From the NCBI RefSeq assembly GCF_003991155.1, contig NZ_CP031293.1: a stretch of DNA of 64,000 bases, one strand, 5' to 3'. Positions within the stretch are counted from its first letter, which is position 1; every line of letters starts with the position of its first letter. The position numbers were made by a program, and so were the translations under genes. This stretch comes from Escherichia coli. Its GTDB lineage: Bacteria; Pseudomonadota; Gammaproteobacteria; Enterobacterales; Enterobacteriaceae. Shown one piece after another: positions 27,560-35,677 of the stretch. Under the pieces are notes generated by a model. That model was given only the letters and a program-made list of their open reading frames with translations, was not told the origin of the DNA and did no database searches.

Positions 27560-30432
<2,873 letters not shown>

Positions 30433-30437
30433 ACACT

Positions 30438-30655
30438 GCCGGATGCGGCACAAGTGCCTTATCCGGCCTACGGGTCGGCAATAGTTGTAGGCCTGATAAG
30501 ACGCGACAGCGTCGCATCAGGCATTGATTGCCGGATGCGGCACGAGCGCCATATCCGGCCTACGGGTCGGCAATAGTTGTAGGCCTGATAAGACGCGACA
30601 GCGTCGCATCAGGCATTGATTGCCGGATGCGGCACGAGTGCCTTATCCGGCCTAC
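30438..30655. repeat. Tandem REP/BIME array, ~2.4 copies of a 92-bp unit each containing two inverted REP palindromes
   Basis: gccggatgcggcac...ccggcctacgggtcggcaatagttgtaggcctgataagacgcgacagcgtcgcatcaggcattgatt repeated with period 92 nt (copies start 30438, 30530, 30622). Confidence 0.8.
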
Positions 30656-30708
30656 AGATCGTACATCCGGCAACAGGCACGGACGTCCAATTAACAGGAA
30701 CACAGAAC

Positions 30709-31542: not shown

Positions 31543-31857
31543 ATGATCCGCAAAGCCTTTGTCATGCAGGTTAACCCCGACGCCCACGAAGAGTATCAGC
31601 GTCGGCATAATCCCATCTGGCCGGAACTGGAAGCAGTGTTGAAATCTCACGGTGCACATAACTACGCCATTTACCTCGACAAAGCGCGTAATCTGCTGTT
31701 TGCCACGGTAGAGATTGAATCTGAAGAACGGTGGAATGCGGTAGCCAGTACTGATGTTTGCCAACGTTGGTGGAAATATATGACCGACGTTATGCCAGCT
31801 AACCCGGATAACAGCCCAGTCAGTAGCGAGCTGCATGAAGTGTTTTACCTGCCTTAA
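31543..31857 (+). CDS. rhaM: L-rhamnose mutarotase
   Basis: 104-aa [49 protein letters not shown]. Confidence 0.93.
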
Positions 31858-31897
31858 TGAGTTGCGGTGCCGGAAAATATCCAGCACCGCGCCTTCA

Positions 31898-33292
31898 TCA
31901 GAAGAAGTATTTAAAGCGAACGCGTGCGCCGTAACGGTCATCAGTATCATCACCGTGTTTTTTATCACCGTCGCTATCCAGAATGGAGTAATACGTCCCG
32001 AGGTAAATATTAAAGTTCTCCATATCCATCACATTAGCGAACTGATAAGACGCATGAATGGTGTGAATGGTGTACGTCCCTTCATCATCAATCCAGCAGT
32101 CGTTATCACAAACTACACCGCTGAATTCATCAATCTTATTGTGCGCGTAGATATAACCCAGCTCGAAACGTTTCCACAGCGCGTTAATCCCGGCAGTGAA
32201 ATCTTTCTCATTATTAGCATCTAAATAGGCGGTATTAAGATTAACCACGACGCCATTTTCCGGATCCGTTTTCAGGCCATTCCAGGTCATGCTCATACCA
32301 TAGCCGGTACGATCGGACTGATCGACAAAATTACCCTTGCTATCGGTATAACCATAAGCATTATTTACCACGTTCGCTTCCATCGCTGCGGAAACGGTGA
32401 ATTCTTCTGTCGGCGACCAGGCAATTACCGGACGCAGATAAGCAACATTTTTCTGCTGCTCCATATCGCGTCCATGATAATTACCGTCATTATATAAAGA
32501 TGTTCCGTCTTCAAGTAACGTGTTTAATTCAAAATACCAGTTATCAAGTTGTTTGCTGACGAGGAAATTACCGCCAGCGTTAGAACGCCCGCGGCCCTCT
32601 TTCATCATATAGATATAACCGCTGCCATCGTCATAAAGATCGTTCGCAGTATTACCGGAATGTTCAACAAAGGTATCCTGATTCAGCGGGAACATATCGT
32701 AGGCTTCAAAACGGCCTACTTTGACCTTCCAGTCGTTTTCTTTGCCAAAGAAGAAAACCGCATCATCGATATTTACTGAACCGTGCATATCCCCCAGCGG
32801 TTGTGCGGAGAACCCGGCGAAATAGCCATTATCCAGTTTTCGCATACCATCAAAACCTAACAAAATACGACCATTGAGATTCCACTGTTCATTAGTGGGA
32901 TCGCTATTCACATCAGCGTTGGTCATTGCCAGCAGGCCATGATTACTTTCCGCATCCATATTAAATTCTACGTCGCCGTAGATTTTTAAATCGCCATAAC
33001 CTGAGAGCAAAAGATTAGGTGAGGTGGAATTTTTCTTTGCAGATTCCGCCGTTGCCTGTCCATTTACCGGCGTATTGCCCTGGGCAGCCTTAATTTCGCG
33101 GATCTCAGCGGCTTGTTGTGTCTGCAGCTGTTTAACCTGGCTCTCTGCTTTTGCTGCCCGCATTTCTGCCGCTTCCAGGCGTTCTTCCAGCAATGCCATG
33201 CGTTGTTCCAGCGTTAAATGCTGTGTTTTTGCCATTCCGGTACTACATGCCAATAATAAACCGATGGCTAAAGATAATGTCGATTTTTTCAT
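31898..33292 (-). CDS. Putative outer-membrane carbohydrate-selective porin (LamB/ScrY-like) with signal peptide, N-terminal coiled coil and C-terminal aromatic residue; strain-specific
   Basis: 464-aa ORF MKKSTLSLAIGLLLACSTGMA..., coiled-coil LEQRMALLEERLEAAEMRAAKAESQVKQLQ, beta-rich body rich in Y/G/N/D, ends ...RFKYFF; family assignment by resemblance only. Confidence 0.5.
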   Translation of the reverse strand: MKKSTLSLAIGLLLACSTGMAKTQHLTLEQRMALLEERLEAAEMRAAKAESQVKQLQTQQAAEIREIKAAQGNTPVNGQATAESAKKNSTSPNLLLSGYGDLKIYGDVEFNMDAESNHGLLAMTNADVNSDPTNEQWNLNGRILLGFDGMRKLDNGYFAGFSAQPLGDMHGSVNIDDAVFFFGKENDWKVKVGRFEAYDMFPLNQDTFVEHSGNTANDLYDDGSGYIYMMKEGRGRSNAGGNFLVSKQLDNWYFELNTLLEDGTSLYNDGNYHGRDMEQQKNVAYLRPVIAWSPTEEFTVSAAMEANVVNNAYGYTDSKGNFVDQSDRTGYGMSMTWNGLKTDPENGVVVNLNTAYLDANNEKDFTAGINALWKRFELGYIYAHNKIDEFSGVVCDNDCWIDDEGTYTIHTIHASYQFANVMDMENFNIYLGTYYSILDSDGDKKHGDDTDDRYGARVRFKYFF

Positions 33293-33768
33293 TATTTACG
33301 TTCCCTGAAATAAAAGAGACCCTACGCTTTCCAAAAGGAATACGTATATAGAGAAATATAAGGTGTGCACTTTCGAATTTTTAATCCAACTTCAGCAGGC
33401 CGATGGATAGTATCCTGCTGCATAATATGAGTAAATCCGCTGATTTCCTGGAACGTGAGGAATATAACAATAGTGCCGTTTTTAACCAAATATCGTAAAA
33501 AATATTAGATATAATTCACGCTGACTCATAAGCCACAAATATAAATAACCTTGCTGCAAAACATGTGCGGCAGTTAAACATTCACAACATCATTAAATAA
33601 TGATTTTTTATTCACGGCATTTATTTTTCCCATCAATATGTGCCTTACACTGCAAAATTTATCCTTCACTCTGCCTTATATTGTCACGACTTCACGACAT
33701 ATCCGCGCTCATCACAAAACCGCCCCGCCGTTACAATTAACTATAATATTTTTTCATGGAATCCAATA

Positions 33769-34215
33769 ATGGCAGCACTTACTGCAAGCTGTATTGACCT
33801 GAATATTCAGGGCAATGGCGCTTATTCCGTTCTGAAGCAGTTGGCGACAATGGCGTTACAAAACGGTTTTATCACCGACTCACACCAGTTCCTGCAAACC
33901 CTGCTGCTGCGCGAAAAAATGCACTCCACGGGATTTGGTTCCGGTGTCGCCGTGCCGCACGGTAAAAGCGCCTGCGTTAAACAACCGTTCGTGTTATTCG
34001 CCCGCAAAACGCAGGCCATTGACTGGCAGGCCAGCGATGGCGAAGACGTCAATTGCTGGATCTGCCTCGGCGTGCCACAAAGTGGCGAAGAGGAACAGGT
34101 CAAAATCATCGGCACGCTGTGCCGCAAAATTATCCACCAGGATTTTATCGACCAACTGCGACAGGGCGACGCCGACCAGGTGCTTGCTTTGTTAAATCAA
34201 ACCCTCAGCTCATAA
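33769..34215 (+). CDS. frvA: PTS fructose-like EIIA component FrvA
   Basis: ORF track 33640..34215 trimmed to MAALTASCIDLNIQGNGAYSVLKQLAT (148 aa). Confidence 0.88.
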   Translation: MAALTASCIDLNIQGNGAYSVLKQLATMALQNGFITDSHQFLQTLLLREKMHSTGFGSGVAVPHGKSACVKQPFVLFARKTQAIDWQASDGEDVNCWICLGVPQSGEEEQVKIIGTLCRKIIHQDFIDQLRQGDADQVLALLNQTLSS

Positions 34216-34219
34216 GGAC

Positions 34220-35677
34220 GTGGCGATGGAGTCATCCTTACGTATTGTCGCGATCACCAACTGCCCCGCCGGGATCGCTCACACCTACATGGTGGCGGAA
34301 GCCCTGGAACAGAAAGCCCGTTCTCTCGGTCATACCATTAAAGTTGAAACTCAAGGATCCAACGGCGTCGAAAACCGCTTATCCAGCGAAGAGATTGCCG
34401 CTGCCGATTACGTGATTCTCGCTACCGGGCGTGGCCTGAGCGGTGATGATCGCGCGCGATTTGCCGGGAAAAAGGTTTATGAGATTGCCATCTCCCAGGC
34501 GCTGAAAAATATCGACCAGATTTTCAGTGAATTACCGACAAACTCACAACTTTTTGCCGCAGATAGCGGCGTGAAGCTCGGCAAGCAGGAAGTGCAAAGT
34601 GGCAGCGTAATGAGCCATCTGATGGCGGGTGTTTCTGCGGCGCTGCCGTTTGTCATCGGTGGCGGTATCCTGGTGGCGCTTGCCAACATGCTGGTGCAGT
34701 TCGGTTTGCCGTATACCGATATGTCGAAAGGTGCGCCGTCGTTTACCTGGGTGGTTGAATCCATCGGTTATCTCGGCTTCACCTTTATGATCCCCATCAT
34801 GGGCGCTTATATTGCCTCGTCGATTGCCGATAAACCCGCTTTCGCTCCGGCGTTTCTGGTTTGCTATCTGGCGAATGACAAAGCCCTGCTCGGCACCCAG
34901 TCTGGCGCGGGCTTCCTCGGCGCGGTGGTGCTGGGGCTGGCGATTGGCTATTTCGTCTTCTGGTTCCGTAAAGTGCGCCTTGGCAAAGCATTACAACCGC
35001 TGCTCGGTTCCATGCTGATCCCGTTCGTCACTCTGCTGGTTTTCGGCGTACTGACTTACTACGTTATCGGACCGGTGATGTCCGACCTCATGGGCGGGTT
35101 GCTGCACTTCCTGAACACCATTCCTCCGTCAATGAAGTTTGCGGCAGCGTTTTTGGTCGGTGCGATGCTGGCGTTCGATATGGGCGGCCCTATCAATAAA
35201 ACCGCCTGGTTCTTCTGCTTCTCACTGCTGGAAAAACACATTTACGACTGGTACGCCATCGTCGGCGTTGTCGCGCTGATGCCGCCCGTCGCGGCGGGTC
35301 TTGCGACGTTCATTGCGCCCAAACTGTTTACCCGACAGGAAAAAGAGGCTGCCAGTAGTGCCATTGTGGTCGGTGCCACGGTCGCGACCGAACCGGCTAT
35401 TCCTTACGCTCTGGCGGCACCACTGCCAATGATCACCGCCAATACGCTGGCGGGCGGCATTACCGGCGTGCTGGTGATCGCTTTCGGAATCAAACGACTG
35501 GCACCTGGTTTGGGTATCTTTGACCCGCTGATCGGCCTGATGTCACCGGTAGGTTCGTTTTATCTGGTGCTGGCGATTGGCCTCGCGCTGAACATTTCAT
35601 TCATTATCGTCCTGAAAGGATTATGGTTACGCCGCAAAGCCAAAGCTGCGCAACAGGAGCTTGTCCATGAACATTGA
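34220..35677 (+). CDS. frvB: PTS fructose-like EIIBC component FrvB
   Basis: 485-aa ORF; N-terminal EIIB Cys motif (ITNCPAGIAHTYM) and polytopic EIIC domain. Confidence 0.9.
   Translation: MAMESSLRIVAITNCPAGIAHTYMVAEALEQKARSLGHTIKVETQGSNGVENRLSSEEIAAADYVILATGRGLSGDDRARFAGKKVYEIAISQALKNIDQIFSELPTNSQLFAADSGVKLGKQEVQSGSVMSHLMAGVSAALPFVIGGGILVALANMLVQFGLPYTDMSKGAPSFTWVVESIGYLGFTFMIPIMGAYIASSIADKPAFAPAFLVCYLANDKALLGTQSGAGFLGAVVLGLAIGYFVFWFRKVRLGKALQPLLGSMLIPFVTLLVFGVLTYYVIGPVMSDLMGGLLHFLNTIPPSMKFAAAFLVGAMLAFDMGGPINKTAWFFCFSLLEKHIYDWYAIVGVVALMPPVAAGLATFIAPKLFTRQEKEAASSAIVVGATVATEPAIPYALAAPLPMITANTLAGGITGVLVIAFGIKRLAPGLGIFDPLIGLMSPVGSFYLVLAIGLALNISFIIVLKGLWLRRKAKAAQQELVHEH

Follow-up and report, generated by a model that had tools for sequence, protein, structure and literature searches.

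A chromosomal RafY-family porin gene adjoining rhaM in Escherichia coli: ancestral position, alternative haplotypes and a conserved promoter with a CRP-like box

The classical raffinose operon, as carried by one 92-kb F-type plasmid, encodes a LacI-type repressor, an α-galactosidase of glycoside hydrolase family 36 (GH36), a permease of the major facilitator superfamily (MFS), a GH32 invertase and a porin. RafY, a porin initially known from raffinose plasmids, reportedly complements mutants in lamB or scrY (Ulmke et al. 1997, cited by PMC4809568 and PMC4827864). Among its relatives, a Salmonella homologue (58% identity) is reportedly induced by lactulose (PMC13304739), the copy of Escherichia coli O157:H7 has been named rafY2 and has no accompanying rafRABD homologues (PMC4809568), and orphan rafY copies have been counted in chicken-associated E. 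coli (PMC12987596). Here, a 64,000-nucleotide stretch of E. coli DNA (contig NZ_CP031293.1 of assembly GCF_003991155.1; hereafter the window) was analysed around a porin gene lying between rhaM and frvA, which is the chromosomal E. coli orthologue of the RafY oligosaccharide porin. The gene is already known, as rafY2 in O157:H7 and as a “carbohydrate porin” in thousands of RefSeq genomes, and its family has entries in Pfam and TCDB; the finding is real but ordinary and carries little weight as a discovery. What is added here is that the rhaM-adjacent porin is an ancestral chromosomal gene with a conserved promoter architecture.

The porin open reading frame (ORF; WP_000749944.1 in RefSeq) lies on the minus strand, starts with ATG and encodes 464 residues ending in ...RFKYFF, which agrees with the 464-residue, Phe-terminated ORF described in a first-pass annotation of the window. 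The start given there, 31858, holds for the span, as the base directly following the stop codon of rhaM, but not for the ORF edge, where the stop codon begins at 31898. Neighbouring genes were taken from the RefSeq record of E. coli strain 2016C-3878, which is 100% identical to the window and has the order rhaD, rhaM, porin, frvA, frvB, frvX, frvR. The porin gene is convergent to rhaM (end at 31857) and divergent from frvA (start at 33769); the roughly 470 bp of AT-rich DNA reported before frvA measure 476 bp from the porin start, with 35.5% G+C. In K-12, as the first-pass annotation had stated, rhaM is followed by frvA across a 300-bp spacer and the porin is absent. None of rafR, rafA, rafB or rafD lies beside the porin in the window. 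Linkage to raf genes is a trait of the operon and not of the protein family.

By every sequence and fold test the window protein is a RafY-family glycoporin. A Pfam search matched it to PF16966 (Porin_8, “Porin-like glycoporin RafY”) with 513.9 bits against a cut-off of 25, and the match is full-length, residues 104–464 covering profile positions 1–372 of 372. Plasmid RafY shares 79% identity and 87% positives with it over 450 residues. All 45 aligned homologues also match PF16966, which is a small family (233 clusters at 50% identity among 1.84 billion representatives); many members have only ~360–390 residues and no N-terminal extension. The gene had first been called LamB/ScrY-like, with OprB as a second candidate family. 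This assignment fails: neither PF02264 (LamB) nor PF04966 (OprB) matched even at E≤1, whereas PF16966 did so at 514 bits. No other Pfam porin family matched, an NCBIfam search returned no family, and a sequence search of the PDB matched no chain, LamB and ScrY included, giving only spurious matches at E ~0.8. Membership of the LamB, ScrY or OprB families was ruled out by these missing Pfam matches together with a fold ranking below that of 16-stranded porins, although the window porin probably does a similar job.

The protein is nevertheless a porin, as first proposed, judged by its predicted 16-stranded β-barrel and its family profile. An AlphaFold2 model was built on the 45-sequence alignment (predicted local distance difference test score, pLDDT, 81; predicted template modelling score, pTM, 0.71). 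It places a helix at residues 28–70, a disordered linker at residues 72–97 and, according to DSSP, 16 long strands within residues 100–463, with pLDDT mostly >90; together with a conserved cleavage site, this agrees with the earlier description of a signal peptide, an N-terminal coiled-coil segment and a β-barrel-like body. The N-terminus, MKKSTLSLAIGLLLACSTGMA followed by KT, resembles a Sec signal peptide. Cys16 is unconserved among the orthologues and the A-x-A-type site before Lys22 is conserved in the 45-sequence alignment, features which point to an ordinary Sec signal peptide and not to a lipoprotein signal. The lipoprotein reading of the LLAC motif (residues 13–16) was discarded for the same lack of conservation at Cys16.

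The model has 16 strands and not the 18 of a LamB-type barrel, in agreement with a TCDB-based survey that lists the RafY family (TC 1.B.15) as 16-stranded. The best PDB matches found by Foldseek were all 16-stranded porins (BpsOmp38, VhChiP, OmpU, OprB, Omp32, PorB and OmpF), and LamB and ScrY were absent from the top 50. At residues 27–54 the ScrY-type extension domain PF11471 (Sugarporin_N) scored 15.3 bits, below its cut-off of 25.7; 14 of the 45 family members match it, with a best E-value of 5.9e-7. The long loop between strands 5 and 6 contains invariant or near-invariant columns (G193, E196, A197, D206, Y228, R234, G235 and R236 in the region of residues 195–240). Its placement after strand 5, like that of the OmpF-type L3, makes it a candidate constriction loop in the model.

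The first-pass annotation had regarded the gene as an extra one at this place. To survey its orthologues, one genome per species was scanned and 80 loci were returned. Every orthologue with at least 66% identity adjoins rhaM, in Citrobacter, Kluyvera, Klebsiella, Raoultella, Pseudocitrobacter, Superficieibacter, Trabulsiella, several Enterobacter and another Escherichia sp., and in the loci examined from Citrobacter, C. rodentium, Kluyvera and Klebsiella the porin is convergent to rhaM. As this arrangement spans 10 or more enterobacterial genera, the porin is ancestral at the rhaM-adjacent position and not an extra insertion; the gene is old and was lost by K-12. The other flank varies: a XRE/cupin regulator and azlCD in Citrobacter and Kluyvera, frvA in Escherichia and Trabulsiella, and a co-directional rafR-rafA-rafB cluster immediately upstream in Klebsiella sp. 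B345, K. spallanzanii, K. grimontii, Raoultella terrigena and Enterobacter sp. JUb54. In Enterobacter sp. kpr-6 (locus L022) and ENT03 (locus L032, 7538–12146), rafR-rafA-rafB lies downstream of the porin, at the usual place of rhaM. Since the raf genes thus occur on opposite sides of the porin, the raf module was inserted on either side according to lineage.

A recently acquired accessory gene, or small island, between rhaM and frvA might be suspected from the base composition, the coding sequence having 44.9% G+C and its upstream region 35.5%, against 54.8% in the rha genes and ~55% in the flanks, and from the variable presence among strains. Synteny largely refutes this account: Citrobacter, Kluyvera, Klebsiella, Raoultella, Trabulsiella and others have the gene at the identical place. 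The G+C deficit relative to the rha genes is 7–9 points in each of the four genera compared; it is therefore intrinsic to the gene and no sign of recent transfer. The locus contains neither mobility genes nor flanking repeats, and the K-12 state is not an empty site, as it contains 164 bp of unrelated replacement DNA. A recent island is thus hardly credible. In a neighbour-joining tree of the barrel region, calculated without bootstrap values, the rhaM-locus genes form one clade apart from paralogues of ~60% identity, and plasmid RafY falls within this clade as sister to the Escherichia copies. The latter placement is consistent with the lower synonymous distance (dS) of plasmid rafY to the window gene, 0.94 against >1.7 for Citrobacter. 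Plasmid RafY probably derives from the rhaM-locus lineage. On one plasmid, NZ_OZ547463 (locus L004, 6322–19321), the raf operon is flanked by IS1, IS110, IS2 and an integrase fragment, and by fragments of chromosomal-type genes (iron-containing alcohol dehydrogenase and thiosulfate reductase cytochrome b); these flanks are consistent with capture from a chromosome.

Presence and absence were surveyed in 5,426 complete E. coli genomes, presence being scored at a coverage of at least 80%. The porin gene was found in 2,557 of them, including O157:H7, BL21, CE10 and Nissle 1917, so that about half carry it and K-12 does not. Three junction types account for 5,368 genomes (99%): the K-12 type without the porin (2,826 genomes), the window type with porin and frvA (1,378), and a type that has the porin but in which frvABXR is deleted and yiiG truncated (1,164). 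For ~350 records the best match, in the 80–90% identity band, was the plasmid-type rafY, with 200 places on plasmids. Compared with K-12, the window has a haplotype-specific segment where K-12 has the ~164-bp filler, which carries the terminator of rhaM itself. A BLAST comparison of the K-12 spacer with the window revealed no porin remnant, only chance matches of 9–16 bp. The locus types are old alternative haplotypes and not the outcome of a clean recent excision. The flanks of the rhaM-frv locus are only ~92–93% identical to K-12 (33634–34300 and the frv operon), and porin alleles within E. coli differ with dS of 0.18–0.26, which is high for E. coli core DNA. This divergence hints at old diverged haplotypes or at recombination. 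The breakpoints lie near one another in the AT-rich spacer, the right edge of the K-12 type at 33634 and those of the frvABXR deletion at 33615/33624, all within 20 bp, which suggests a recombination-prone spot at 33615–33634.

Substitution ratios were calculated by the Nei-Gojobori method. The ratio of non-synonymous to synonymous rates (dN/dS) of the window gene was 0.059 against a B2 allele (46 synonymous and 12 non-synonymous differences), 0.048 against O157:H7, 0 against strain CT265 (12 synonymous, none non-synonymous) and 0.04–0.07 against Citrobacter, Kluyvera and Klebsiella. Amino-acid differences among E. coli alleles fall mostly in the periplasmic helix and linker (residues 51–91) and not in the barrel. 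With dN/dS of ~0.05 within E. coli, the orphan porin gene is therefore maintained; selection keeps it even in the absence of frv and raf genes. These data bear on the possibility that the gene is a relic without function, left from a chromosomal raf operon and now decaying in E. coli. rafRAB is indeed missing from E. coli, half of the strains lack the porin, and truncated variants exist, namely a 342-residue form starting at Met122 (a cluster of 496 member sequences) and a 435-residue form with an internal deletion. Decay is hard to reconcile with the excess of synonymous over non-synonymous differences between divergent E. coli alleles, with the intact ORF seen in all full-length genome records that were sampled, and with promoter and ribosome-binding sequences conserved across genera also where rafRAB is lacking. 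A relic is therefore highly improbable. The allele of Nissle 1917 (locus L092, 1501–2874) has an in-frame deletion of seven residues in the N-terminal coiled coil, and some E. coli lineages may carry impaired porin alleles.

To examine the control region, 14 upstream sequences from Escherichia, Citrobacter, Kluyvera and one further enterobacterium were aligned. They have mostly diverged but contain invariant islands. One is the block TGTTA..T..CTCAC(G) at 33469..33454, a CRP-like box which was found in 31 of 35 orthologous upstream regions; four raf-linked loci of Klebsiella/Raoultella lack it, as do the 194 bp preceding plasmid rafY. The box is similar to the CRP site in the window's own PrhaBAD (TTGTGAACATCATCACG), and a position of about −61.5 is the classical class I CRP position. 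On its conservation and spacing, the box is a putative site for CRP. A predicted −35 element, TTTAC, follows it after 18 nucleotides; in Escherichia, Citrobacter and Kluyvera alike, TTTAC and TA.T do not vary and keep a fixed distance from each other. Another promoter proposed by a consensus scan (33384..33355) was set aside, being unconserved and located in a region deleted relative to Citrobacter. Next to the start codon, all 14 upstream sequences carry an unvarying TTTATTTCA(A/G)GGAA.

The transcript leader contains a hairpin whose position, ~20 nucleotides upstream of the ribosome-binding region, recurs in ~27 of 33 orthologues with differing sequences. RNAalifold found no consensus structure in the MAFFT alignment of the leaders, because MAFFT shifts the register between genera. 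The leader as a whole is not unusually stable (z −0.29), and a scan of 31700–33900 against Rfam at E≤1 gave no matches. The hairpin may be an element related to mRNA stability or to small RNAs and Hfq. At the other end of the gene, the stem-loop between the convergent stop codons of rhaM and the porin is terminator-like on both strands, without a U-tract, with folding energies of −21.5 kcal/mol (z −4.0) on the plus strand and −28.1 kcal/mol (z −5.1) on the minus strand.

The earlier suggestion that the porin serves uptake of a rha or frv substrate found no backing in this control region or in the distribution of the genes: RhaS/RhaR-like sites were not seen, the porin is kept where frv is deleted, and frv is kept without the porin. 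A role in the rhamnose system, in the uptake of L-rhamnose or of rhamnose-containing glycosides or oligosaccharides, would accord with the adjacency to rhaM kept in 10 or more genera and with two paralogues, in Budvicia diplopodorum and Klebsiella spallanzanii, that end a cassette of an MFS permease and a GH78 enzyme. However, the convergent orientation makes co-transcription with rhaM impossible, and a comparison with the window's PrhaBAD, PrhaSR and PrhaT showed no RhaS/RhaR-like sites above shuffles in the porin promoter (best 17-mer match 13/17; shuffles, mean 12.4 and maximum 14). Moreover, the box at −61.5 leaves no space for a RhaS dimer, ~52% of E. coli, including K-12, use rhamnose without the porin, and the GH78-linked porins are paralogues of ~62% identity and not orthologues. 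Rhamnose is also small enough for OmpF and OmpC. Service to the rhamnose system is therefore unlikely. Partnership with the Frv phosphotransferase system (frvABXR) through a common divergent control region has in its favour the divergent arrangement with frvA in Escherichia, Trabulsiella and two Enterobacter species, and the presence of frvA within ~2.5 kb in several Citrobacter and Kluyvera. In the latter two genera, however, the unrelated azlCD-regulator module separates the two genes; in E. coli, the 1,164 genomes without frvABXR keep an intact porin under purifying selection, and 2,826 others have frv and no porin. An Frv partnership is extremely improbable.

Taken as a whole, the explanation favoured with good confidence is a chromosomal, ancestral RafY porin that is expressed from its own promoter with a CRP-like box and forms a wide oligosaccharide channel. 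The precursor would be exported by Sec and cut after Ala21. Residues ~28–70 would extend into the periplasm as a helix, probably in a trimeric coiled coil, and residues 100–464 would form the 16-stranded barrel, with the loop after strand 5 folding inward. By homology to plasmid RafY, the channel would be wide and largely non-specific, admitting di- to oligosaccharides that pass OmpF/OmpC poorly, such as raffinose, stachyose, sucrose and maltodextrins, into the periplasm by diffusion. The gene stands alone as a monocistronic unit under its own conserved promoter. Because that promoter has a CRP-like box at about −61.5, cyclic AMP (cAMP)-CRP would probably switch the porin on under carbon limitation, rather than rhamnose or a substrate of Frv. 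Among lineages, the raf cluster accompanies the porin in Klebsiella, Raoultella and some Enterobacter; Escherichia, Citrobacter and Kluyvera have kept only the porin, and K-12-type E. coli neither.

Several points weigh against this explanation. The box matches the CRP core TGTGA-N6-TCACA with two mismatches, one of them at the G of TGTGA, the CRP pattern occurs in the window at chance level (28 matches, 26.5 expected), and another regulator could bind there. The transcription start near 33400 is itself predicted, and the AT-rich upstream DNA could mean silencing under laboratory conditions. The pore properties are extrapolated from a relative of 79% identity, the trimeric state is presumed, and the neighbour-joining tree carries no bootstrap support. 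A literature search, which included guessed O157 locus tags, found no experiment on the chromosomal porin.

Paralogues of ~60% identity close cassettes consisting of an MFS permease and a glycoside hydrolase: GH32 in Klebsiella, Raoultella, Erwinia and Rahnella; a GH37-like enzyme with MFS_2, plus GH3, in E. cloacae and K. oxytoca; and a GH78 α-L-rhamnosidase in B. diplopodorum (locus L049, 1875–7371) and K. spallanzanii (locus L042, 1909–7359), an operon-like arrangement that is a candidate unit for rhamnoside uptake and hydrolysis. In many pathways for oligosaccharides and glycosides, RafY-type porins therefore provide the step across the outer membrane, and the E. coli rhaM-locus copy is the stand-alone case. 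A more speculative proposal, held at low probability, is a cAMP-CRP-controlled scavenger channel for rhamnose-containing plant glycosides or oligosaccharides, whose uptake would account for the linkage to the rha cluster across genera. The leader hairpin and ribosome-binding region would act as a post-transcriptional gate that shuts the pore off when it is not required, for instance through silencing by a small RNA as in chiP/ChiX. If it were true, the ~50:50 presence and absence would reflect a trade-off in which access to nutrients is set against a more permeable outer membrane or exposure to phages. Under the favoured explanation of a general oligosaccharide porin, roughly half of E. coli, among them O157:H7, BL21 and B2 strains such as Nissle 1917, would possess an additional porin with a wide channel, missing from K-12. 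This would matter for the use of oligosaccharides in the gut and possibly for the permeability of the outer membrane to larger solutes.

Two further differences were noted on the rha side of the locus. The rhaA-rhaD spacer, which contains a repetitive extragenic palindromic (REP)/bacterial interspersed mosaic element (BIME) array, measures 276 bp in the window, ~450 bp in K-12 (locus L003) and ~184 bp in CT265 (locus L002). A gene for an Fe-dependent alcohol dehydrogenase, similar to fucO/lactaldehyde reductase, stands immediately upstream of rhaM in some E. coli, among them E69 (locus L011, 7750–8895) and the genome NZ_CP074998. It is found beside rhaM in all Citrobacter, Kluyvera and Klebsiella loci and is absent from the window and K-12, and it appears to have been lost from the rha cluster in most E. 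coli. The features of the locus are collected in Table 1.

Table 1. Positions of the porin gene, its predicted protein segments, control elements and neighbouring features in the window.
Feature	Position	Strand	Basis
Coding sequence, RafY-family porin	31898..33292	-	ORF, RefSeq annotation, PF16966, 79% identity to plasmid RafY
Sec signal peptide, codons 1–21, predicted cleavage after Ala21 (GMA/KT)	33230..33292	-	Sequence features and A-x-A conservation
Predicted periplasmic N-terminal α-helix, coiled-coil extension, ScrY/DcaP-like, codons 28–70	33083..33211	-	AlphaFold2 helix, pLDDT ~85
Predicted 16-stranded β-barrel, codons 100–464, terminal Phe	31901..32995	-	AlphaFold2 and DSSP
Long loop joining strands 5 and 6, highly conserved, codons 195–240 (GRFEAYDMFPLNQDTF...YIYMMKEGRGRS)	32573..32710	-	Alignment and AlphaFold2
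Conserved CRP-like box TGTTATATTCCTCACG, centre ~61.5 bp upstream of predicted start	33454..33469	-	Multi-genus alignment
Predicted sigma-70 promoter: −35 TTTACT 33430–33435, 17-bp spacer, −10 TACTAT 33407–33412	33407..33435	-	Conservation
Leader hairpin ACGTATTCC-TTTT-GGAAAGCGT, in ~108-nucleotide 5′ leader	33324..33345	-	Per-sequence folding
Invariant ribosome-binding region TTTATTTCAGGGAA; Shine-Dalgarno AGGGAA 33301–33306, 8 nucleotides before ATG	33301..33317	-	Alignment
Stem-loop GCGGTGCCGG-AAAATAT-CCAGCACCGC between the stop codons of the convergent rhaM and porin genes	31864..31890	.	RNA folding
Haplotype-specific segment, 1,775 bp; K-12 type has ~164 bp of unrelated DNA instead	31859..33633	.	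Pairwise BLAST
frvA-proximal promoter region common to K-12, only 80% identical (135 bp)	33634..33768	+	Pairwise BLAST
REP/BIME array in the rhaA-rhaD spacer, three tandem units, 92-bp spacing, GCCGGATGCGGC...TTATCCGGCCTAC	30419-30661		

Of the known systems, plasmid RafY (pRSD2 type; TC 1.B.15) is alike in its 464 residues, its domain, its 79% identity and its clade, and both proteins have the N-terminal helical extension and the C-terminal ...RFKYFF. The differences lie in the genetic setting: plasmid rafY is the last gene of rafR-A-B-D-Y, whereas the window gene is chromosomal and solitary and has a conserved promoter with the CRP-like box, a feature that the 194 bp preceding plasmid rafY do not show. 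The plasmid copy also evolves faster at the protein level, with a dN/dS (omega) of 0.14 against ~0.05. The chromosomal RafY proteins of Klebsiella and Raoultella are likewise encoded convergent to rhaM and share 74–76% identity with the window protein, and the CRP-like box is present in two of their loci (L009 and L020); they are preceded by rafR-rafA-rafB, whereas the E. coli locus has no raf genes, and the box is missing from four raf-linked loci. ScrY and LamB (TC 1.B.3; PF02264) are similar as outer-membrane oligosaccharide channels, and ScrY has a periplasmic coiled coil (PF11471). The closest predicted fold is that of the 16-stranded trimeric porins (OprP, Omp-Pst1, OmpU/T, Omp32, OmpF and DcaP of A. 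baumannii), from which the window porin differs in sequence, with only 8–14% identity, and in its larger barrel of ~365 residues with long extra loops.

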